A stretch of 64,000 nt of DNA from Candidatus Poribacteria bacterium (GCA_965197475.1 CBDANF010000003.1:1376001-1440000); one strand, 5' to 3'. Positions 52,716-64,000 are shown, numbered from the stretch's first letter. Numbers and translations are program-made. Notes: generated by a model from the letters alone, not told the origin.

Positions 52716-53897
52716 ATGTTAGCAGAACAGAAATTACAGTTTCTACAGAAAACAGAGCTTTTTACAGAACTTCCGAGAGCAGGTTTAAAATCAATTTGCG
52801 ATATTGCGCACGAGGTAGTCTGCCCTGCAAATCACACCCTCTTTGAGGAAGGTGCAGAGGGCGATTCACTTTACCTGCTTGTTGATGGCGAAATTAGCAT
52901 CATAAAAGCGGAAACGGAGGTATTATCTTTTAAAGAGAAGGGATATTGTCTCGGTGAAGTCGCCCTAATTGACGATAAACCGAGAAGTGCGACAATTAAA
53001 ACAGTTTCCCCGACGCACCTCCTGCGAATTACTCGGCACGATTTTTACCAAGCATTAGCCCGCGAACCTCTGATCGGTAGAGGAATGTTTCGGGTGCTAA
53101 ATAATAAAATTCGCCATGACCTTGAAATTCAGATGAGTGCAATCCGGAAAGAAGTCGCACAAGAGGAGTCGATGCGGCTTGCCGCCGAGGTACAGCAGTC
53201 AATTTTGCCCAACGAAGAGATTACATACCCGTGTGTAACCTCTGCTGGATATTGTCAACCGACAAACAGTGTTGGTGGTGATTATTACGATTATCTATAT
53301 CTTCCTAACAATCGAGTTGCGATTTTTATCGGTGATGTAATGGGACACGGATTTCATTCCGCTATGGTCGCAGCTATGACGAAAAGTTGCATACAAACGC
53401 AAATCCGTTTTGATGCTTCAGTGCCTGAGGTGATGAAGGCTGTCAAGCGGGTTGCTGAAGAGGATGCACAAACCTTTATTTATATGACATGTTGCTACGT
53501 TATCATCCATCAGGATAATCGGCTTGAGTTTGCCAACGCGGGGCATCCAGCAATGCTTCATTTTCGGGCGAACAGTGAAGAGTGTATTGAATTGGAATCC
53601 CAATTCCCGCCAGTAGGTATTGCGTTACCAAATCAAAATTCGGTGACGCAATACCACAGTACTGAAACGAATTGGGAACCTGGGGACTTACTCGTGCTTT
53701 ATTCGGATGGTATCACTGAAGCTTTTAATGCAGATACTGAGATGTATGGAATTGAGCGGCTCAAAAACCTCTTGTCTGAAAAGCAACATCTGTCTGCTGT
53801 TAAAATTAGGAAAGAGATTCTGTCTGATCTTGAGGCGTATCAGCAAAGTAAAAACCCAGATGATGACATTACGTTAGTTATCGCAAAATTTCTATAG
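52716..53897 (+). CDS. cNMP-binding domain + SpoIIE/PP2C (RsbU-like) phosphatase
   Basis: GEVALIDDKPRSAT; VGGDYYD, GDVMGHG, NAGH, LYSDGITEA, DDITL. Confidence 0.93.
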   Translation: MLAEQKLQFLQKTELFTELPRAGLKSICDIAHEVVCPANHTLFEEGAEGDSLYLLVDGEISIIKAETEVLSFKEKGYCLGEVALIDDKPRSATIKTVSPTHLLRITRHDFYQALAREPLIGRGMFRVLNNKIRHDLEIQMSAIRKEVAQEESMRLAAEVQQSILPNEEITYPCVTSAGYCQPTNSVGGDYYDYLYLPNNRVAIFIGDVMGHGFHSAMVAAMTKSCIQTQIRFDASVPEVMKAVKRVAEEDAQTFIYMTCCYVIIHQDNRLEFANAGHPAMLHFRANSEECIELESQFPPVGIALPNQNSVTQYHSTETNWEPGDLLVLYSDGITEAFNADTEMYGIERLKNLLSEKQHLSAVKIRKEILSDLEAYQQSKNPDDDITLVIAKFL

Positions 53898-53923: not shown

Positions 53924-55189
53924 TTACCGACTCTGCTGTTCAATCTGATTGGCTGCGTAATAGATAATGTTTTCAATGAGTGCTTTGTTCACAGAAACCG
54001 TATACTGATTATCGTTTCGGAGACTGGTGATAATGTAAAGTCCTTTTCCATATCGCCGTGCACCGATAACGAGTTCGTTGCGTTCTTGCGAAGTTGCAAA
54101 TACCTTATCGGTTTTTTCCCAATTCGTCCAAGCATCATCAGTATAGATTTTGCCAGATTGAATTTCGTTCGGAGTGGAGAAAAGCGTGTGACCGTTTTGG
54201 GTAGCAACAAAAAATCTATCTGGCGGACTTTCAACGCCTTTCAAATTGCCCTGCAGCCAACCAACTCCGCACGGTTTTTGTAAAGTACTGTCTTGTCCAG
54301 AAACGATAACAATACCACCATTTTTGACGAAGTTTTTAATTTCTTTCTCTGTCTTTGGGGTAAGGAGGTATCTACCGAAACTTGAAATTTCTTCGTATCC
54401 AATCCATAAAATATCGGCTTCCTGTAAGTTCGGGAGCGTACGCATCTTGGTAGATTCATAAGCCATTGGACGTTTCCCAGTCTTTTTAACATTGCGTAAA
54501 GCCTTGTATTCGTAGGTCATTGAGTTGGTATGGACATGGGTTTGTCCCATAGTAGCAGATGTGCTATTTCCGGTTAAAACCAGAATTTTTACAGCGTTTT
54601 TGGCTGCGGTAACCCACATTTTTCCCGCTAACATGTCGCGAACAACTTTTTGGAACGTTTTTGTCTTACCATTAAAGGTGCGCAACATCATCGGATCAAT
54701 GTGAGTGAAACTCCACCATGAACTACTGTTACCTTGATATCCACGCATTTGAAACCATGTGTTGTCAATAAAGCACATACTATCAATACCGTATTGTTCC
54801 CGATAGAATACGATAATTGGCATGCCCTGTTTAAGTAGTCTTACCATCTTTTGCGGTGAGGTGCCCTGTTGATATTGTCCGGTGGCAAAGTTCATTTTAA
54901 TTTCTTTTAGATAACTTTTGCCCTTCACATCTTCATTGACTTTAATAATAGCCTGCAACCTCCCTGCCTTTACTGAATAAACTTCACCAAAAACGATATT
55001 TGTGCAGGCATCAAGGACTTCTCGAATTGTATACTCACGCTCAATGAAGCCAAGCGCGGGTGATGAAGTGAGGAAACCGATAAGAAATAACGAAACAATC
55101 AATGTTGTTAGGAACTGTGTAAAACGCACTGTCAGACCTCCATGTAGATTGACATCTTTGAATTGTATGATTAATAGAAATTTTATCAT
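53924..55189 (-). CDS. Exported hypothetical protein with C-terminal class I glutamine amidotransferase-like fold (tentative)
   Basis: Signal peptide (true start probably GTG near 55130, VRFTQF); EIKNFVKNGGIVIV and YGKGLYII segments. Confidence 0.7.
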   Translation of the reverse strand: MIKFLLIIQFKDVNLHGGLTVRFTQFLTTLIVSLFLIGFLTSSPALGFIEREYTIREVLDACTNIVFGEVYSVKAGRLQAIIKVNEDVKGKSYLKEIKMNFATGQYQQGTSPQKMVRLLKQGMPIIVFYREQYGIDSMCFIDNTWFQMRGYQGNSSSWWSFTHIDPMMLRTFNGKTKTFQKVVRDMLAGKMWVTAAKNAVKILVLTGNSTSATMGQTHVHTNSMTYEYKALRNVKKTGKRPMAYESTKMRTLPNLQEADILWIGYEEISSFGRYLLTPKTEKEIKNFVKNGGIVIVSGQDSTLQKPCGVGWLQGNLKGVESPPDRFFVATQNGHTLFSTPNEIQSGKIYTDDAWTNWEKTDKVFATSQERNELVIGARRYGKGLYIITSLRNDNQYTVSVNKALIENIIYYAANQIEQQSR

Positions 55190-55402
55190 ATTTATATCAA
55201 TTTGACAACAATTTTGTCAAGTTTCTGTCTGAATCGCGGATTTTCGCAGATTGCACCAAATCAACGGTATGAATGCCTGTTGGCATTCCCCGGATTACGC
55301 GGATTTTGGGAGTCTGACAAATTAGGCGGACAAGGTTTCCTTCCTGCAAAAGAGAAGCCATGGCTAATCTCAAAATTTTACATACCGTAATTTATTTTCA
55401 AC

Positions 55403-55431
55403 TTGAAAATTCTCCAAATTAATATTATAAT
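55403..55431 (+). promoter_or_regulatory. Putative sigma70 promoter at start of defence island
   Basis: TTGAAA-17bp-TATAAT in an AT-rich intergenic region. Confidence 0.55.
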
Positions 55432-55829
55432 GCAATTATTAATAATGTATCCAAATCAAGAATTGATGGATAGGAATTGATCTCTACATGGCAGCGTGAA
55501 ATTGGAGAAAAAATTATGTATAAGAAAAGTATCACAGATCCGTTGGAGGGTGTAACAAGTTCGTTACTGAGCTTTCAAAAACAATTGGAAAATGTCTGCA
55601 GGCTTCCTGAAGTTGTTCCGAATTCTTCTGTTACAAAGTTTTTAAATCAACAAAACAATTAACAATGTTAAGTCCTCTATTGAATCTATCTCTGGTATCA
55701 CCCCAAATTGTCCAAACTATAGTAATATTTATAGCAAGATTGTCCCCGTTATAAGCACATGACGGGATGTCGGTATATATCTTAAGAAATCGCACTTCGT
55801 TTTGGCTTGGGAATTAATAGGGTAATAAT

Positions 55830-58610
55830 TTGCAATTTCAGATAAAAACTATTGGGCACTTACGTTCTCTCTTTACAGATGGACCAGATCCTATCTTCCT
55901 GCTTGGGGCTGGTGCTTCCTACAGTTCAGGTATTCCTCTTGCGGGTGAAATGGTTGAAAAAATAGCAAGATGGGGATACTGTAAGGAAAATAACCTTTCT
56001 ATTGAAGATCCGCGCATACGGCGCAGTGACTGGTATCCGTGGTTAGAAAAACAGAATTGGTATCGGTCAGATTGGGAACGCTCTCAAAATTATCCTTACG
56101 CAATTGAAAACATTCTTCAGCCAAGAGAAGATAGAAGACAATTTTTTCTTGATATCCTGAATACACAAGTGGAACCAGGCGAAGGATATAAATATATGGC
56201 AGAGCTCATGGCGCGTAAACACGTTCGCACCGTTCTTACTACAAACTTTGATAGAATTTTGCAAGAAGTGCACAGAGTAAACCGCAGTATTCATCATGTT
56301 GATATTATCCAAACACCTTCTGAATATAGAAAATTATCCACAAGTCCGCGATATACCCAGATTGTTTACTTACACGGTTCAGTTGAAAATTATAATGACA
56401 AAAATACTTTAGCAGAAACAGCACATCTTGATGAAGGTTTAGTTTCAAGGTTGTTACCACTTTTGAGGGATCATCCTTTGATTGTTATAGGATATCGAGG
56501 CGCGGAAGCTTCCGTAATGAGACATCTTCTCATTGATAACGCTGCGGCTGCAGATGGTTACCGTCATGGGATTTATTGGTGCTCGCGAAATTATATAGAG
56601 GGCGATTCTGACAATCTTCCTTCGTTAGTTCAGGCACTTGCTGGTGAGATCCAAACAAACTTTCAAATTTTTTCTATCAATGGATTTGACGAAGTGATGT
56701 GTACTTTATGGCAGCATGTTCGTCAGCAGAGTACGGATTATCAGCCGCAAATTCCTTCTGTGTCTGAAGAATTATCATTATTTCCTTTTGATTTCCAGAA
56801 ACTTACCGAAGCTGCCTTAGATGATTTTGATTGGCCGACAATGAGAGTTCGGGTGTTTCAGTACTGCGATAGGATGGATATCCGGGTGCCGCCAACTGTC
56901 AACGACGATTGGATTATTCGATTGCTGTGCGATTTAGATCTTGCCTCACCTACTGAAGAAGATAATATTTTTCCAACGGTGGGCGGTTACTTACTTTTTG
57001 CTGCGACTCCGCAGCACTGTATTCGAACCGCCAAAGTTGTCGTACGCATAAATGGGGATCTTGAGTGGATCCAAAACGTATTTGATGTTTCCACCAATCA
57101 AGTAGAACAAAAAATTGAGGGTAACCTTTGGCATCAACTTGACGAGATTTATGCGCTGCTTTCTCGCATTAACCGATCCTTCCTTCTAAAGGAAGGACAA
57201 CACTCAAAATCTGTATATCCCTATCCTCCAGATGCCTTGAGAGAAGTAGTTGTCAACGCACTCGTCCACCGTGACTATAAGAAGGATGAACCAATTGTGA
57301 TTGAAATTGAGCAAAATAGTATCCGTATCCGCAATCCAGGCGGGTTAGTTCAAGACGTTATAGAACAGATGACGGCCACACCTCATAACGAGATAAGAGA
57401 CACGTTTGAAACAAGAATTAAAGGTGGGGGACGGGGTATTCAAGGATATCGGAATCCTGTTGTGTCGGACCTGTTCTATGGCACAGAAGATATGGAAAAA
57501 GCAGGTTCCGGATTACCGGACGTTTGGCAGAAATGCGATGAAAACAAAAATGAGGTGAGTTTTGGACCGATTGATAACAACGCTGCTTTTGAAATAGAAA
57601 TTTCGCGCCGCCCAGAGGCAGTAGATACTATTACTGGAACTGCCTCCAGTAGTAAACACTTCATCCGCTACGCGAGCAATCTTCTTGAAGTAGTTAATCT
57701 ACCGGATGTAGTTTGGCACGCTGGAACTACTGCACGAAAAGCAAAGGATGTATGGGAAAGCACAGAAGCAGATTGGCTGCCTCCATTCATGACTTATGCA
57801 GAAAGGCTTTTTACTTTCGAGAATCTATCAACTTCTGCTAATCCACTTTACACTGCGATTGACACTAACGATATAGGAAAGATAACTATTGAAGAATTTA
57901 TTAACACCTATGATGAGAAGGCCTTTGCCTGGCTACTCAATACATGTTTTTTCAGACACCTTGAAGCACAAGGTCTATTGGTAGACAAAGATCGAAAACG
58001 TGCTTATTTTCCCAAAACAGGCGAAAAATATCGAGAAATCACCTACAAGGCACGTGTCCGCCGTGCTACCCGAAAAGTGGTGAAAAAAAGAAATAATTAT
58101 TGGGAACATAAGTCATTTTGGTTTCGGTTTGAACGCTATGGAAATGTCTGGACCCTACTCTTACTTCCAAGTTATGTTTTTACTACTGATGGAAAAGCAT
58201 CGTATTTGTCTGGTGATTTGGCCAACAAATATTCCACCCGGCTTCAGAGTCACGATTACAACAATGTGGTGCACAACGATCTTGTATTCTGGGCGTGGGT
58301 GCTTTCAGGCGGAAAACATGGTACTTTTGCACTAGACACAGGTGCACCAGAAATAAAATTGGATACGGTTTCAGCAAACAAAATCCATAAAGGCAACGGT
58401 CATCAAATCCTTATTAGAAATAACTTGTCAGCGGTTGTTGCTCCTGTGATGGAATTAGATGAAGCATGGGGAATTGGAGCACTTGAGAAATTGGATACAA
58501 GCGAATTGGCACAGTTAGAGTCAGAAATCTCACAGACGTTTTCGCAATTAGCAGAGGAAGAAGATGTTAATTCAAATGCAAATCAACCAATTACCTACAC
58601 CAGAGATTGA
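55830..58610 (+). CDS. SIR2-like NADase + HATPase_c_4 (RecG-C-terminal-like) + APAZ fusion; short-pAgo effector
   Basis: SIR2: FLLGAGAS..SGIP, LTTNFD, YLHGS, VIGYRG. Middle: YPPDALREVVVNALVHRDY, RNPGGL, YRNPVVSDLF, EKAGSGL. APAZ: SNLLEV..LP, WLLN..F..HL, LLPSYVFTTDG, YNN.VHNDL.FW. Confidence 0.88.
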   Translation: MQFQIKTIGHLRSLFTDGPDPIFLLGAGASYSSGIPLAGEMVEKIARWGYCKENNLSIEDPRIRRSDWYPWLEKQNWYRSDWERSQNYPYAIENILQPREDRRQFFLDILNTQVEPGEGYKYMAELMARKHVRTVLTTNFDRILQEVHRVNRSIHHVDIIQTPSEYRKLSTSPRYTQIVYLHGSVENYNDKNTLAETAHLDEGLVSRLLPLLRDHPLIVIGYRGAEASVMRHLLIDNAAAADGYRHGIYWCSRNYIEGDSDNLPSLVQALAGEIQTNFQIFSINGFDEVMCTLWQHVRQQSTDYQPQIPSVSEELSLFPFDFQKLTEAALDDFDWPTMRVRVFQYCDRMDIRVPPTVNDDWIIRLLCDLDLASPTEEDNIFPTVGGYLLFAATPQHCIRTAKVVVRINGDLEWIQNVFDVSTNQVEQKIEGNLWHQLDEIYALLSRINRSFLLKEGQHSKSVYPYPPDALREVVVNALVHRDYKKDEPIVIEIEQNSIRIRNPGGLVQDVIEQMTATPHNEIRDTFETRIKGGGRGIQGYRNPVVSDLFYGTEDMEKAGSGLPDVWQKCDENKNEVSFGPIDNNAAFEIEISRRPEAVDTITGTASSSKHFIRYASNLLEVVNLPDVVWHAGTTARKAKDVWESTEADWLPPFMTYAERLFTFENLSTSANPLYTAIDTNDIGKITIEEFINTYDEKAFAWLLNTCFFRHLEAQGLLVDKDRKRAYFPKTGEKYREITYKARVRRATRKVVKKRNNYWEHKSFWFRFERYGNVWTLLLLPSYVFTTDGKASYLSGDLANKYSTRLQSHDYNNVVHNDLVFWAWVLSGGKHGTFALDTGAPEIKLDTVSANKIHKGNGHQILIRNNLSAVVAPVMELDEAWGIGALEKLDTSELAQLESEISQTFSQLAEEEDVNSNANQPITYTRD

Positions 58611-60048
58611 ATTTGGTGCCCCAGGTACATTTATAGATCCAAAAGTAGGTCTAATTGAAGCAGGTCCTTTTGACCGACGTTTCGGGGCCGCTCATAAAAG
58701 AGAGGTCCGCGTTGGTTTCGTTGGCAACACAGAAATATTAAATAAAGGCTATAAATGGATTGAAAGGTGTTGCAAAGTAATTCCAACAGAGATTAAAGAC
58801 TCTCCACAATACCAGGATTTTCCTGGTTTTCAAGATATTTTTCACGCTACACTTGAGTTAAGAAACCAGTGGGTAAAAACAATTGACAACAAAAAACTTG
58901 AAAGAGCATTAGCAATAAAGAATTCAAAAAGCCGTTTTGAGGATGTATTGAATCTTTATACCGATGGTATAGATAAGTTGGTCAATTGCACTGAAACTCG
59001 TCCTGACATAGTAATGTGTTGTTTGCCTAATGAGGTCATCCAAACATGTTGGAGCATTTCAAGTAATCTGACTCCTAGACAACTTGAATCCATCAAGAAA
59101 CGTAAGGCTGAGCGTGAGCGTGGGCAACTTTCTTTATTTGAAGACATAGAAGAAACCGAAGAAGACCTGCTGAATCGGAATTTTAGACGGGCATTGAAAG
59201 CACGGACAATGAAATATGAAATGCCAATTCAAATTGGAACTGAGAGATTGTTTGAAGATATGGAAACTAGTCAAGAAGCGGCTACAAGAGCATGGAACAT
59301 GAGTGTGGCACTCTATTACAAAGCGGGAGGAATACCGTGGCGTTTTAAGGTAGACGGACCAGAAACCTGCTTTGTCGGTATCAGTTTTCATCACTTACGA
59401 ACTCCTTCACAACATCTTGTCTATTCAAGTTTAGCACAAGCTTTTTCAAGCCGGGGCGAAGGATTCGCGCTTCGCGGCGAACCTATCCCTAGAGATGAAA
59501 AACAGGGATGGAATGTGCACTTAACAGAGGACCAATCAGCTAAACTAGCAAACAAAGTACTTCAAGAATACAATGAACAGATAGGCGGTAATCCACAACG
59601 TGTTGTACTTCATAAAACATCAAAATTTGACGACTCTGAACAAGATGGGTTCCGACACGGTTTCCGTGACATTCCCATAGTCGAATTAATTAACATTATG
59701 CCGACACAATTTCGGCTATTAACTTATGGAGCATATCCTCCGAGAAGAGGCACCTTGTGTACAGTCAATAAGGAAGCCACATATCTATTCACTACAGGCT
59801 ATATGCCTGAATGGCGGACTTACCCTGGACCTCACATTCCTGCTCCAGTAAGACTAATGAGTAACGATGACGTTGACATGCATCAGGTCGCCTCAGATAT
59901 ATTAGGACTCGCCCGCATGAACTGGAATACTGCAAGCATGAGCAGTTCCCACCCTGTAACGTTATTTTTCTCTCGGCGAGTCGGAGGCATCATGGCGGAG
60001 GTAGGAGAAATTGAAAAACCCCGTCCATCTTTCCGTTATTATATGTAA
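58564..60048 (+). CDS. ago: Short prokaryotic Argonaute (MID-PIWI, catalytically inactive)
   Basis: 494 aa; P.IEFG, GPFD, FPGF, FRRALKA..PIQI, WN..ALYYKAGGIPW, CFVGISF (D>S), VVLHKTS (D lost), YPPRRGT, LARMNWN, PVTL, C-terminal FRYYM. Confidence 0.95.
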   Translation: MLIQMQINQLPTPEIEFGAPGTFIDPKVGLIEAGPFDRRFGAAHKREVRVGFVGNTEILNKGYKWIERCCKVIPTEIKDSPQYQDFPGFQDIFHATLELRNQWVKTIDNKKLERALAIKNSKSRFEDVLNLYTDGIDKLVNCTETRPDIVMCCLPNEVIQTCWSISSNLTPRQLESIKKRKAERERGQLSLFEDIEETEEDLLNRNFRRALKARTMKYEMPIQIGTERLFEDMETSQEAATRAWNMSVALYYKAGGIPWRFKVDGPETCFVGISFHHLRTPSQHLVYSSLAQAFSSRGEGFALRGEPIPRDEKQGWNVHLTEDQSAKLANKVLQEYNEQIGGNPQRVVLHKTSKFDDSEQDGFRHGFRDIPIVELINIMPTQFRLLTYGAYPPRRGTLCTVNKEATYLFTTGYMPEWRTYPGPHIPAPVRLMSNDDVDMHQVASDILGLARMNWNTASMSSSHPVTLFFSRRVGGIMAEVGEIEKPRPSFRYYM

Positions 60049-60154
60049 ATCATAAAATTGTTATACAACTGACGATGTTCAGGCGTTTGATTGACAAACA
60101 GTGAAATGGTTGAGAGACTGTAATAAAATTTAGACATCTCCCAAAGGAAACCCA

Positions 60155-61765
60155 ATGCCCACACTTGACTTCAAAGGCAAACAATTCATATACGCACACC
60201 ACCTCACCGTCCCCTTCCGCAAACCGGAAATAGACGCAGAAAAATCCCTCACAGGCGAAAAACCTCCATCATTAGACGATAACCTCATTATTCACGGTGA
60301 CAACCTACATGCCTTAAAAGCACTCCTCCCCGTATACGCTGGCAAAATCAAGTGTATCTATATTGACCCGCCTTACAACACTGGCAACGAAAATTGGGTT
60401 TACAATGATAACGTCAATAGTCCGATGATGAGAACGTGGCTTGAGAAAAACAGTCCGATTGATATTGAAGATTTGGAACGGCACGATAAGTGGTTGTGTA
60501 TGATGTGGCCTCGGTTACACTTATTGCGTGAGTTGCTATCCGATGATGGCGTAATTTTCATCTCAATTGATGATAATGAACAGCATCGTTTGCGGATGTT
60601 AATGGATGAGATTTTTGGAGCAGAAAATTTTGTAACTAACATAATTTGGCAGAAAAAATTTAGTCCGCAAAATGATGCCAAGTATTTTTCCGATAATCAT
60701 GATTTTGTGGTTTGTTACGCAAAGGATAAAGAAACATGGCGGCCGGTTCTTCTACCTCGAACTGAAAAGCACAACAAGCGATATTCTAATCCTGACAACG
60801 ACCCGCGGGGACCTTGGAGTTCAAGTGGATTAGATGTAAAAACCTATCAAGAAGAATATGACTATCCGATCACTACTCCATCAGGACGAATTGTTAATCC
60901 TCCAACAAGTAGGTGCTGGAGGTGCAGCAAAGAGAAATTTGATGAACTTATTAATGACAATAGGATATGGTTTGGTGAAGAGGGTAATAATGTCCCTCGC
61001 GTAAAGCGTTTTCTATCAGAAGTTAAACAAGGCATCACACCTTTAACTGTATGGTTATATGAAGATGTTGGACATACTCAGAGTGCAACACAAGGACTTA
61101 ATAAAATTGGTGTTGCATTTTCAAACCCAAAACCACATACATTGATAGAACGCATATTACAAATTGGTACTGACCCCGATTCAATTATTCTGGACTCCTT
61201 CGCGGGCAGCGGCACCACTGCCCATGCTGTGCTTGCACTCAACAAAGCGGATGGCGGTAACCGAAAGTTTATCCTCGTTGAATGCGAAGATTACGCTGAC
61301 GACATCACCGCCGAACGCGTCCGCCGCGTCATAAATGGCATTGAAAATGCCAAAGATGAAAACTTGCAAAAAGGACTCGGTGGTTCCTTCACCTACTGCA
61401 CACTCGGTGAAACGATTGACACTGAGGGAATGCTTACTGGCGACTCACTTCCCACATACCAAACCTTAGCGAACTATGTTGCTTATACGGCTACCGGCAG
61501 TAATTTGCAGGTCAAAGCAAAGCAGAAAAATTATTGCTTCGGTGAAACAAAGGATATCCGCTTCTATCTCATCTATGAACCGACACTTGAATTTTTAGAG
61601 AGCAACAAGTCCGCTTTAGATGCGAAACGCGCTGAGCAGATAGCTGAGGAATGCAAAGCGACAGGCAAAAAAGCCTACGTCTATGCGTCTCATAAGTTTA
61701 TGAGCCAGAAAGAACTTACACCGATGGGTATTACCTTCTGCCAACTCCCCTACAGCATCTATTAA
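60155..61765 (+). CDS. mod: Type III R-M adenine methyltransferase (Mod)
   Basis: IHGDNLHALKAL, YIDPPYNTG, FISIDDNE, NPKP, LDSFAGSGTTAHAVL (beta-class order). Confidence 0.95.
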   Translation: MPTLDFKGKQFIYAHHLTVPFRKPEIDAEKSLTGEKPPSLDDNLIIHGDNLHALKALLPVYAGKIKCIYIDPPYNTGNENWVYNDNVNSPMMRTWLEKNSPIDIEDLERHDKWLCMMWPRLHLLRELLSDDGVIFISIDDNEQHRLRMLMDEIFGAENFVTNIIWQKKFSPQNDAKYFSDNHDFVVCYAKDKETWRPVLLPRTEKHNKRYSNPDNDPRGPWSSSGLDVKTYQEEYDYPITTPSGRIVNPPTSRCWRCSKEKFDELINDNRIWFGEEGNNVPRVKRFLSEVKQGITPLTVWLYEDVGHTQSATQGLNKIGVAFSNPKPHTLIERILQIGTDPDSIILDSFAGSGTTAHAVLALNKADGGNRKFILVECEDYADDITAERVRRVINGIENAKDENLQKGLGGSFTYCTLGETIDTEGMLTGDSLPTYQTLANYVAYTATGSNLQVKAKQKNYCFGETKDIRFYLIYEPTLEFLESNKSALDAKRAEQIAEECKATGKKAYVYASHKFMSQKELTPMGITFCQLPYSIY

Positions 61766-61783: not shown

Positions 61784-64000
61784 ATGGAACTGAAAGATTA
61801 CCAACAACAAGCATTAGAGGCGTTAGACCGCTACCTTGAGGCATTGAAGGAAGCGCATCTGCAATTGGATAAAGTTGCCAAGATTCTCTCATCAGATGAA
61901 GTCCCCGATAGTTTGAGAAATTATCCCCTTCAAGCATGGGAGAGTTTACGCAAAAAATCGGGGTTGCCGGGTGTGCCAGACAAAAATGGTGAGAACCATA
62001 TTCCAGAATATATTTCACGTGAAGCCGCCTCTGGCGAACCGATCCCGCATGTCTGCTTGAAAGTGCCAACAGGTGGCGGAAAAACGTTGTTAGGTGTAGA
62101 GGCGGTACGGCGACTTAAAATCGGCACAGGATTTTTGCTTTGGATTGTGCCAACTAAAGCCATCTATACCCAAACGTGGGATGCTTTTAGCGATAGAGAT
62201 CATCCGTATCGTCAGATTTTGGATCGCGCTTCTGGTGACCGCGTCAAACTCCTTGAAAAAGACGATAGATTTACAAAGCAAGATGTTAAAAATCACCTCT
62301 GCGTGATGCTTCTGATGCTACCCTCTGCAAACAGAGAGAAAAACAAAGAATTTCTGAAAATATTTCGTGATAGCAGCGGTTATGATTCTTTCTTCCCTAT
62401 TGAAGACGATATTAGGAAACATCAGGCGTTATCGGAGGAACACCCCGACCTTGAAACAGCAGCAATCGACGAACCCGGACAGATGCGTGGTATGTTCGCA
62501 GCAAACCCTGCAGATAGACTGATTAAGCAGAGTCTTATTAATGTACTAAAATTGATACGACCAACGGTGATTTTAGACGAAGCACATAAGGCTTATGGAA
62601 GCAAAAAAGTTGAAAACAACCGGGAGTTTGTGGCAGCAGTGAATCGCCTGAATCCGCGCTTTGTGTTGGAGTTATCTGCCACGCCTCAACTTGGTATCAG
62701 CAACATTCTTGTCAATATCCCCGGTACTGCTCTTAAAGATGAGGAAATGATTAAAATTCCGATTCAACTTCGGAATTTTCCCAATTCCGATTGGAAATGG
62801 ACACTTGCTAAAGCAAAGACAGAACGTGATAAACTTGAAGAGGCAGCAAAGCAGTTTCAGCACGCAGAAAACCGCTATATCCGCCCCATTGCTGTAATTC
62901 GGGTTGATCGGACCGGTAAAAAGCAGCGTGACGGTGTTAAGGTGCATGCATTAGATGCCCGCGATGAACTTATCAAGGTACTTGGCGTTCCAGAGGAGCA
63001 CGTCAAAATTAAATCCTCTGAACAGGATGAACTCGCGGGTGTTGATCTGCTCAGTCCTTTTTGCCCCGTTCGCTACATCATCACAAAAGATGCACTAAAA
63101 GAGGGATGGGATTGTCCATTTGCCTATCAATTGGCACTGCTTGATAACACCACTGCACAAACCGCTATGACGCAGCTTATCGGTAGAGTTATGCGGCAAC
63201 CGCATGCCCGCGCAACGAATCAACCAGAATTAGATACTTGTTATATCTATTGCTTTAATCAGGAAGTAGGCGATGCTGTTGACAACGTCAAAAAAGGTTT
63301 AGAGGCGGAAGGGTTAACAGGACTTGCGGAATACGTTGAAAGCACGGATGCGGAGCGTGAAAAGAAAAATATCCAGCGCAGGAAAAAATACCGTGAGATA
63401 GATATTTTTCTGCCACAAGTAATGCACAAACGGGGGCGTAGTTGGGACATGCTAAATTATGAGCGTGACATTCTCAGTGCGATTGATTGGAGTCAACTCG
63501 AAGCGGTGGAACCGGTAAATTTGGACGACAAGGAACTCCTACAAGAAATTCGCGCGACTATCCATTTGCAAGACCATGACAAACCAGAAAAAATCATATT
63601 AGAGAATACATCTCAAAAATTGGAAATATCGTTTTTTGTTAGGCGTTTGAACGATGTTATCCCGAATCCTTGGCAAGCGGCGCGTATCGTCAAAGCCACT
63701 CTCCAAGCGTATCGGGAACAAGGCACTGATGAGAACAAGTTATTTGCAAATCGGTTGTATCTCTCCGAAGTTTTGAAGAACAAACTCCGTACACAGATAG
63801 AGTCTCTCGCTGAAACTATTTTCCGAGAGAAACTGGATAATAATAAAATTAGGTTTAGTCTTGAAACAGATGTAGAGTTGAATTTTGAGTTGGAAAAAAC
63901 GATTGAAGTTTATCTCACAAAAAACCCAAAACGTTTAACGCGTTCGGATAATAGTCCCGTGCAGCTTAACCTATTTAACCCAGTGTACGAAGCAGAATTC
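61784..64000 (+). CDS. res: Type III R-M restriction helicase/endonuclease (Res), runs off window
   Basis: Read by hand from ATG 61784: MELKDYQQ, CLKVPTGGGKT, ILDEAHKAY, ELSATP, LKEGWDC, QLIGRVMRQP. No stop noticed before 64000. Confidence 0.9.
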   Translation, partial: MELKDYQQQALEALDRYLEALKEAHLQLDKVAKILSSDEVPDSLRNYPLQAWESLRKKSGLPGVPDKNGENHIPEYISREAASGEPIPHVCLKVPTGGGKTLLGVEAVRRLKIGTGFLLWIVPTKAIYTQTWDAFSDRDHPYRQILDRASGDRVKLLEKDDRFTKQDVKNHLCVMLLMLPSANREKNKEFLKIFRDSSGYDSFFPIEDDIRKHQALSEEHPDLETAAIDEPGQMRGMFAANPADRLIKQSLINVLKLIRPTVILDEAHKAYGSKKVENNREFVAAVNRLNPRFVLELSATPQLGISNILVNIPGTALKDEEMIKIPIQLRNFPNSDWKWTLAKAKTERDKLEEAAKQFQHAENRYIRPIAVIRVDRTGKKQRDGVKVHALDARDELIKVLGVPEEHVKIKSSEQDELAGVDLLSPFCPVRYIITKDALKEGWDCPFAYQLALLDNTTAQTAMTQLIGRVMRQPHARATNQPELDTCYIYCFNQEVGDAVDNVKKGLEAEGLTGLAEYVESTDAEREKKNIQRRKKYREIDIFLPQVMHKRGRSWDMLNYERDILSAIDWSQLEAVEPVNLDDKELLQEIRATIHLQDHDKPEKIILENTSQKLEISFFVRRLNDVIPNPWQAARIVKATLQAYREQGTDENKLFANRLYLSEVLKNKLRTQIESLAETIFREKLDNNKIRFSLETDVELNFELEKTIEVYLTKNPKRLTRSDNSPVQLNLFNPVYEAEF

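Follow-up and report, generated by a model that had tools for sequence, protein, structure and literature searches.

The operon at positions 55830-60048 of the DNA analysed here, a 64,000-nucleotide (nt) stretch from a Candidatus Poribacteria bacterium (GCA_965197475.1, CBDANF010000003.1:1376001-1440000; hereafter the window), almost certainly specifies, to judge from sequence comparison, a short prokaryotic Argonaute (pAgo) system with a SIR2-GHKL-APAZ partner protein. Taken as a whole, it is best explained as a clade-S2B short-Argonaute abortive-infection system with an ATP-assembled SIR2 NADase, a reading to which we assign a probability of about 0.55. The locus belongs to a catalogued subtype that is without functional characterisation in the searchable literature. 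Our analysis adds to the catalogue entry the recognition that the central block is a Schlatpase lacking the Schlafen core, a conservation pattern that speaks for two live enzymes, a set of cultured hosts, and a mechanistic analogy. "Schlatpase" is the name given in a May 2026 preprint (bioRxiv 10.64898/2026.05.29.728809) to the supradomain made of AlbA_2 and GHKL. The two genes and the parts of the effector are as follows.

55830..58610, + strand: effector gene, 926 amino acids (aa), TTG start, with SIR2, linker/GHKL ATPase, APAZ and acidic tail in this order; PADLOC model PDLC02402 and a full-length AlphaFold2 (AF2) model.
55830..56729 (aa 1-300), + strand: SIR2 domain, with GAGAS at 26-30, N139 in TTNFD and H182 in LHGS; Pfam SIR2_2 and a match to GsSir2-APAZ 8in8_B.
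56769..57629, + strand: Schlatpase-type linker (aa ~314-392) and GHKL/Bergerat ATPase (aa ~393-600), as modelled, with N-box E472/N476, PGG 503-505, RNP 541-543 and GSG 559-561; Pfam HATPase_c_4 and AF2 domain model.
57639..58445 (aa ~604-872), + strand: APAZ domain; sequence match to 9om4_A, PADLOC and Foldseek.
58446..58607 (aa 873-926), + strand: acidic C-terminal tail, 13 acidic and 2 basic residues; predicted helix at 890-912, the remainder at low confidence.
58564..60048, + strand: short pAgo gene, 494 aa, ATG start, MID-PIWI; PADLOC pAgo_I and PDB sequence matches.
58564..58610, + strand: gene overlap, 47 nt shared by the effector and pAgo open reading frames (ORFs), from the ORF listing.

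An earlier note on this DNA had described two ORFs of 926 and 494 aa overlapping by 47 nt, and had read the first as a SIR2/HATPase_c_4/APAZ partner of a short pAgo. The ORF listing recovers both frames at the same coordinates, all the motifs that had been quoted occur in the effector at their given places (GAGAS 26-30, TTNFD 137-141, LHGS 181-184, REVVVNA 471-477, RNPGGL 501-506, YRNP 540-543 and EKAGSG 556-561), and the three-domain composition is upheld by Pfam, PADLOC, PDB sequence matches, the AF2 model and Foldseek. The effector scores 1045 bits against PADLOC PDLC02402 ("Aga_SIR2-PNTD1-PNTD2"), over residues 9-912 and profile positions 3-869 of 876, and 735 bits against PDLC02418 ("Aga_SIR2-Kinase-PNTD1-PNTD2"). 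Pfam places SIR2_2 at residues 134-256 (4.7e-9) and HATPase_c_4 at 487-573 (2.3e-7). Among PDB sequences, residues 22-301 align to GsSir2-APAZ of SPARSA (8in8_B, 2.2e-14), residues 417-510 to 3lmm_A (3e-7), and residues 615-829 to HNH-APAZ of SPARHA (9om4_A, 1.5e-15), with weaker matches to DREN-APAZ and DUF4365-APAZ chains; the PADLOC model Aga_REase-PNTD1-PNTD2 also covers residues 615-852 (7e-35). The scores put the PDLC02402 and Pfam matches, like the match of the pAgo to pAgo_I given below, far beyond chance.

The full-length AF2 model, built on 52 aligned sequences, has a mean predicted local distance difference test score (pLDDT) of 85.8 and a predicted template modelling score (pTM) of 0.54. 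Residues 1-300 form SIR2 and 314-600 a compact block, with a hinge of low confidence at 301-320; then come APAZ, rich in beta structure, at 604-872, a helix at 890-912 and a disordered end. The best Foldseek match of the whole model is the SPARSA Sir2-APAZ chain 8y80_E (3.7e-19), and 3lmm and the ThsA SIR2 are also found. The C-terminus, described earlier as APAZ-like, came through the proposed check of modelling as APAZ: beside the sequence match to 9om4_A, Foldseek on the full-length model pairs this domain with APAZ chains of SPARHA, SPARDA and SPARTA (9om4_A, target-normalised TM-score [TMt] 0.76; 9qbp_A, TMt 0.71, root-mean-square deviation [rmsd] 3.0; 9vx1_E, TMt 0.84). The acidic tail that follows resembles those of S2A/S2B APAZ proteins, which are described as autoinhibitory in the literature, including the 2024 SPARTA paper.

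Pfam reports no significant family on the 494-aa pAgo. Its assignment as a MID-PIWI short pAgo, also made in the earlier note, is carried by 499 bits (E 3e-150) to PADLOC pAgo_I (PDLC02376) and by the end-to-end alignment of residues 11-494 with the catalytically inactive short pAgos of SPARDA and SPARTA. At 494 aa it has the size of short pAgos made of MID and PIWI only (~450-500 aa), and the overlapping gene encodes an APAZ with an N-terminal effector. Homology to the inactive short pAgos, together with the general statement of Koopal 2022 that all short pAgos are without the DEDX tetrad, suggests that the PIWI domain is without it here. The closest PDB sequence is the pAgo of SPARHA (9om4_B, 5.1e-70, 239.6 bits), followed by those of SPARDA (9jsb_A, 4.4e-50, 173.9 bits), SPARTA (8ifk_B, 7.1e-48, 166.6 bits) and, far below, GsSPARSA (8in8_C, 5e-21, 78 bits). 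Because the HNH and DREN systems belong to clade S2B (SPARHA paper), this ranking fits a putative S2B placement and not the S1B of SPARSA.

Comparison with the solved systems makes the operon a composite of features that each of them has in part. SPARSA (GsSir2-APAZ/GsAgo, clade S1B; 8in8, 8y80) likewise has a SIR2 N-terminal to APAZ and a paired short pAgo, and its SIR2 is homologous, with aligned catalytic N and H. It differs in that a ~290-aa linker plus GHKL lies here between SIR2 and APAZ, where SPARSA (S1A/S1B) has a short linker, in the distance of its pAgo (78 bits vs 239.6 to SPARHA), and in the C-tail, which is acidic here and of which Sir2-APAZ is devoid according to the SPARSA paper. 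SPARHA (HNH-APAZ/pAgo, clade S2B; 9om4) offers both the closest solved pAgo and the closest solved APAZ (1.5e-15; TMt 0.76), whereas its effector is a filament-forming HNH nuclease without SIR2 or ATPase. SPARDA (DREN-APAZ) and SPARTA (TIR-APAZ) have homologous pAgo and APAZ proteins and an acidic autoinhibitory C-tail in both; as effectors they carry a DREN nuclease and a TIR NADase, respectively, and an ATPase module is absent from both.

The block between SIR2 and APAZ sets this subtype apart. Residues 300-612 were modelled alone from an alignment that joins 21 relatives associated with a pAgo and 23 that stand alone, giving a domain model with pLDDT 88.2 and pTM 0.86. VIA-align against 48,161 chains ranks 3lmm_A (DIP2311) at the top (Z 22.0, rmsd 3.8, 235 aligned residues; model 15-299 on chain 170-412), above dozens of ATP-binding domains of histidine kinases, CheA (P4), pyruvate dehydrogenase kinase (PDK) and anti-sigma factors that cover model 94-301 with Z 7-8.4, among them CheA P4 1i58_A (Z 8.4, rmsd 3.7, 134 aligned); Foldseek on the same model agrees. 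The Bergerat alpha/beta sandwich is present in the model, and since Z values of ~8 are weak by themselves, the assignment is carried by the 3lmm match and Pfam. As modelled, the block is a Bergerat-fold GHKL domain (~393-600) behind a DIP2311-like helical/beta linker subdomain (~314-392). It has the ExxxN N-box (E472, N476) and the glycine-rich G2 box (G559, G561) of GHKL proteins, and the linker plus PF13749 GHKL of the Schlatpase supradomain.

The genome scan found dozens of stand-alone proteins that match effector residues ~318-600. In all seven that were run against Pfam, AlbA_2 lies at ~1-130 (47-168 in one) and HATPase_c_4 then at ~280-430, and by tblastn the match to effector residues 287-326 starts at residues 105-185 of the stand-alone proteins, just past AlbA_2. 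Together with the 3lmm fold match, this bears out the earlier proposal that the block is the module found behind a Schlafen/AlbA_2 domain in stand-alone proteins. AlbA_2 (PF04326) itself was detected by Pfam in 0/37 pAgo-associated family members at E <= 0.1, and the N-terminal 300 aa of the effector are SIR2 by sequence and fold. SIR2 thus holds the position of the Schlafen nuclease, and APAZ that of the C-terminal winged helix-turn-helix (wHTH), of Schlatpases. Stand-alone Schlatpases (AlbA_2 + HATPase_c_4 +/- wHTH; DIP2311, 3lmm) share the linker and GHKL fold (Z 22.0, 235 residues) with effector residues ~318-600, and differ in having an N-terminal AlbA_2 and often a C-terminal wHTH where SIR2 and APAZ stand here. 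A composition of SIR2, Schlafen nuclease and APAZ was considered and rejected, given the detection of AlbA_2 in 0/37 members and the alignment of the block only to the part of 3lmm after AlbA_2. The older label of this family, "SIR2 fused with Schlafen domain", is corrected accordingly: the Schlafen AlbA_2 core is absent, and the word Schlafen most likely reflects the GHKL/linker part. The "SLFN-APAZ" proteins of the Schlatpase preprint (bioRxiv 10.64898/2026.05.29.728809), having been chosen with PF04326, are probably a separate family. Elsewhere in the genome of the present bacterium there are two more HATPase_c_4 genes, G000:C3:3477319-3477564 (-) and G000:C2:1254529-1254801 (+), in open frames of 465 and 505 aa, sizes typical of stand-alone Schlatpases.

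The same preprint describes RzAgo, a Schlafen (SLFN)-pAgo with a long-B core. RzAgo carries the PF13749 GHKL behind an effector and before an Argonaute-type sensor, as the present operon does, and its ExxxN residues E314/N318 correspond to E472/N476. The PADLOC pAgo model PDLC02394 (1121 positions) matches effector residues 377-509 (1.9e-10). RzAgo differs in being a single polypeptide with a long-B core and a Schlafen tRNA nuclease as effector, while the sensor here is split into APAZ and short pAgo.

Both enzymatic domains are strongly constrained. Across 52 sequences with identity to the effector down to 22%, the SIR2 residues G26, A27, G28, S30, N139, F140, H182 and G183 and the GHKL residues E472, N476, H480, G504, N542, G559 and G561 are invariant (52/52). 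When 44 middle blocks are compared, 23 of them from stand-alone Schlatpases, E472, N476, H480, N542 and G561 are still invariant (44/44). In the 8in8_B alignment, effector N139 and H182 fall on the catalytic N142 and H186 of GsSir2. Catalysis on NAD+ depends critically on these two GsSir2 residues according to the SPARSA paper, and only the tetramer puts H186 in position. Judged by these residues, the SIR2 domain looks catalytically competent, and the GHKL domain looks competent as well. The 44-sequence alignment also revealed ~18 extra residues in the pAgo-associated family, relative to stand-alone relatives, between the PGG and RNP motifs. We take this region to be the ATP lid, from general knowledge of GHKL proteins and from the lid-mediated interface of RzAgo.

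The architecture is widespread and its gene order conserved. A word-indexed search returned 305 relatives; for the best 120 of the 305, identity is 54% or higher and query coverage almost always 91-100%, and those of the 120 that carry a name are Candidatus Poribacteria. An exhaustive search of 50%-identity representatives gave 162 proteins at E <= 1e-30. On contigs from one genome per species, at least 24 loci have a full-length partner, a lower bound as the locus scan was pattern-limited, and in 24/24 the partner gene is followed immediately, on the same strand, by that of the pAgo; at one of these loci, L023, the frame shifts near residue 72. The hosts are Poribacteria, Acidobacteriota (Blastocatellia), Bacteroidota (Dyadobacter, Pontibacter), Rhodothermales, several Alphaproteobacteria, Actinomycetota, Verrucomicrobiota and Saccharimonadales. 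The cultured ones, Mesorhizobium loti DSM 2626, Sphingobium mellinum DSM 7458, Sphingopyxis indica DS15, Pontibacter litorisediminis KCTC 52252, Shimia biformata JCM 18818 and Novosphingobium mangrovi HK4-1, make the ATP gating proposed below directly testable.

Departures from this architecture were also found. Shorter representatives comprise SIR2+GHKL proteins of 590-691 aa (P0168, P0189, P0203, P0210) and proteins that are GHKL only by Pfam (P0166, P0156, P0242); they could be stand-alone SIR2-GHKL or GHKL-APAZ proteins or truncated gene calls. A Planctomycetaceae metagenome-assembled genome contig (L024:1451-3353) contains a SIR2-GHKL frame that corresponds to effector aa 3-605 and is interrupted by a frameshift at about aa 50. 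Neither APAZ nor, in the 6 kb that follow, a pAgo was matched; the frame is a degenerate copy or else a SIR2-GHKL module that stands alone. Some family members carry a fourth, N-terminal domain, namely PNP_UDP_1 (P0124, 3e-19), Metallophos (P0127, 2.7e-6) or Trypsin_2 (P0151, 6e-11), and others have N-terminal extensions without a Pfam match (P0125, P0169, P0145); the extra domains may be stacked effectors.

The 47-nt overlap of the two genes suggests translational coupling, and it recurs identically in the closest relative, L001 (effector end 8784, pAgo start 8738). The effector start at the TTG codon 55830 is close to forced by the sequence, since an in-frame TAA lies two codons upstream (55824-55826) and the first ATG encodes M41, behind the invariant G26, A27, G28 and S30; the TTG would be the only workable start. 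Upstream of the operon there is one further feature of this kind.

55403..55431, + strand: promoter-like site, TTGAAA, 17-nt spacer, TATAAT, 11/12 consensus match.

This site is weak evidence for a promoter, since it is only a consensus match and the total of such sites in the scanned region (17) is near the shuffle expectation (13.1). The sequence scan found no terminator-like site on the + strand in 55100-60300, the gap between the pAgo gene and the downstream Mod gene included.

In the mechanism that we infer, the pAgo and the APAZ domain of the effector would form a heterodimer whose bilobed, guide-loaded sensor is modelled on SPARHA, SPARDA and SPARTA by homology. Once a small guide, probably RNA, has paired with invader DNA, the N-terminal SIR2 domain would become active, hydrolyse NAD+ and stop or kill the cell. 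Intact SPARSA-type catalytic residues point to this outcome, and we regard target-triggered NAD+ depletion as likely. The GHKL block could act between these events: ATP binding would close its lid and cause the block to dimerise or tetramerise, as in RzAgo, and the resulting oligomer would gather the SIR2 domains into the assembly needed for NADase catalysis. Full activity would then depend on cellular ATP bound by the GHKL as well as on a guide-target duplex held by the pAgo/APAZ lobe, and the acidic C-terminal tail may hold the duplex channel closed beforehand.

The analogy with RzAgo carries the ATP-dependent step. E314 and N318 of RzAgo coordinate the gamma-phosphate and Mg2+, ATP is bound specifically and hydrolysed, and ATP or ATP-gamma-S converts dimers to tetramers via lid-containing interfaces; deletion of residues 1-442 abolishes assembly and deletion of the SLFN part only has little effect (bioRxiv 10.64898/2026.05.29.728809). 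As for the SIR2 side, the SPARSA paper cites the NADases ThsA and DSR2 as also needing oligomerisation. Since the GHKL of RzAgo drives assembly and SIR2 NADases need oligomers, ATP-dependent oligomerisation of the GHKL may supply or license SIR2 assembly. For this role of the GHKL we put the chances at even.

Several points weigh against the overall explanation. A canonical GHKL G1 box is DxGxG, with an Asp that contacts adenine. The G1 box of this family is N/S/T-P-G-G in 23/25 sequences and QGS or RGS in the other two, with no Asp, so that ATP affinity is not readable from sequence. The full-length pTM of 0.54 leaves the placement of SIR2 relative to GHKL undefined. RzAgo, from which the analogy is drawn, belongs to the long-B pAgos, carries its Schlatpase in fusion and has a nuclease as effector. 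SPARSA reaches an active SIR2 tetramer without an ATPase, as its authors report, and the GHKL may serve another purpose. In a sponge metatranscriptome (run X23), two exact contigs within the effector gene (57255-57498 and 57830-58043, depth ~2), with the rest of the operon uncovered, are a weak hint of transcription in situ and may derive from DNA. Finally, full-text literature searches, which largely leave subscription journals outside their coverage and could miss a study, found no functional or structural work on the SIR2-GHKL-APAZ subtype, in line with the earlier statement that none was known.

Among the alternatives, the GHKL might be a nucleotide-independent spacer or a constitutive oligomerisation scaffold in an otherwise SPARSA-like NAD+-depleting system activated by the guide-target duplex and by pAgo-pAgo and SIR2-SIR2 contacts only. 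The ATPase-free assembly of the SPARSA tetramer and the missing Asp of the G1 box speak for it. A passive spacer would hardly be expected to keep E472/N476 and the glycine motifs invariant in 52/52 sequences down to 22% identity, and the RzAgo member of this Pfam family both binds ATP and hydrolyses it; we consider this account unlikely. To a similar degree improbable is a GHKL sensor or timer of opposite sign, in which ATP holds SIR2 off or hydrolysis resets it, and a fall in ATP or completed hydrolysis licenses NAD+ depletion. That E472, the catalytic-base Glu, is conserved together with the residues for binding suggests a role for hydrolysis beyond binding itself, and RzAgo E314A still binds ATP and oligomerises less well (bioRxiv 10.64898/2026.05.29.728809). 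The sequence is silent on the sign of the effect, and in RzAgo, the only characterised relative, ATP binding is a positive signal for assembly.

It is more doubtful still that the GHKL is a second effector, either a kinase or an enzyme that uses up ATP in parallel with the depletion of NAD+. The name of the sister PADLOC model ("Aga_SIR2-Kinase-PNTD1-PNTD2"), the likeness of the fold to histidine-kinase catalytic and ATP-binding (CA) domains and PDK, and the further N-terminal enzyme domain stacked on some relatives (PNP_UDP_1, Metallophos, Trypsin_2) are in its favour. A phospho-acceptor (dimerisation and histidine phosphotransfer, DHp/His) domain came up neither in Pfam nor in the fold search, and the block accompanies a nuclease and wHTH in stand-alone relatives and is regulatory in RzAgo. 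Least probable of all is a SIR2 that ADP-ribosylates a target or binds an NAD-derived ligand instead of acting as a bulk NADase: SIR2 folds do support several chemistries, but the closest relatives of this one are those of SPARSA (113.8-149.1 bits to PADLOC Aga_SIR2 models vs 12.9-13.3 to ThsA), with which its catalytic N and H align. An ATP-assembled SIR2 NADase remains our preferred explanation.

The subtype itself has been on record for some years. It corresponds to og_40 of Ryazansky 2018 ("DHS-like/RecG-like-APAZ", annotated as SIR2_1 + "Schlafen" + APAZ), as the effector unites SIR2, a COG2865/HATPase_c_4-type block and APAZ in one protein beside a short pAgo. Koopal 2022 lists an S2B "DHS-like-APAZ" with suggested NADase activity, and the 2024 SPARTA paper uses the label "RecG/DHS-like". 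The earlier note had mentioned a "RecG/DHS-like" APAZ fusion in clade S2B, and these three sources confirm it. The two PADLOC models PDLC02402 and PDLC02418 already hold the architecture, and the SPARHA paper of November 2025 mentions "additional uncharacterized effectors" in S2B. The only paper found to contain both "APAZ" and "GHKL" is the RzAgo preprint (bioRxiv 10.64898/2026.05.29.728809), whose text never mentions SIR2. A literature search on the "PNTD" nomenclature returned unrelated papers only.

The operon is flanked in the window by the following genes.

52716-53897, + strand: 393-aa protein with a cyclic-nucleotide-binding domain (35-116) and a SpoIIE/PP2C phosphatase domain (198-392).
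53924-55189, - strand: 421-aa ORF just upstream of the operon.
60155-61765, + strand: Mod, PADLOC MTase_III (6e-190), Pfam N6_N4_Mtase.
61784-64000, + strand, running off the window end: Res, PADLOC REase_III (1.8e-199).

With the adjoining downstream type III restriction-modification pair, the pAgo operon forms a small defence island. The restriction-modification genes were considered as part of the system and rejected, since conservation of the operon does not extend to its neighbours: when Mod, Res and three proteins encoded upstream in the window were compared with L001-L026 by tblastn, no match reached E <= 1e-10. Metagenome contigs of related strains track the window only over ~55679-60046 and then diverge into unlike sequence. 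On both counts the operon fits a self-contained two-gene cassette. Within it, related-strain contigs of runs X4/X8 are 90-99% identical to the window, with the exception of a 299-nt stretch of the same length at 56065-56365 (effector aa ~79-179, in SIR2) that has diverged beyond the alignment threshold, which could reflect local recombination or diversifying change. The cyclic nucleotide monophosphate (cNMP)-binding part of the 393-aa protein resembles PADLOC Pycsar/TIR effector models (~1e-12 to 1e-13); the gene could encode a cNMP-regulated phosphatase and is not necessarily a defence gene. The 421-aa ORF matches no Pfam or PADLOC family at E <= 0.001. A short intergenic repeat at ~55225-55310 (106-nt query, 22 matches in the same genome, three of them at 90-94% over 82-87 nt), where metagenome contigs pile up and break, may be a repetitive extragenic palindromic (REP)- or miniature inverted-repeat transposable element (MITE)-like element.

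Research on short pAgo systems concerns both the immune mechanisms themselves and their use as programmable nucleic-acid detectors. In all those characterised (SPARSA, SPARTA, SPARDA and SPARHA), target binding is coupled directly to effector oligomerisation, and the SIR2-GHKL-APAZ subtype adds a conserved ATPase between effector and sensor. As a tentative generalisation, which we hold as possible and no better than that, SIR2-GHKL could be a sister of the Schlafen-GHKL Schlatpase. The GHKL would then be a portable oligomerisation chassis on which suicide effectors (SLFN nuclease, SIR2 NADase, added PNP, metallophosphatase or protease) and sensors (wHTH, long-B pAgo, APAZ plus short pAgo) have been swapped, and the operon a two-key switch that fires only with both cellular ATP and a guide-target duplex. 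Such control, if true, is used by no characterised short-pAgo system. If the ATPase gates the NADase, this would be the first nucleotide-licensed short-pAgo system and would provide a mechanistic link to the SLFN-pAgo/Schlatpase family.

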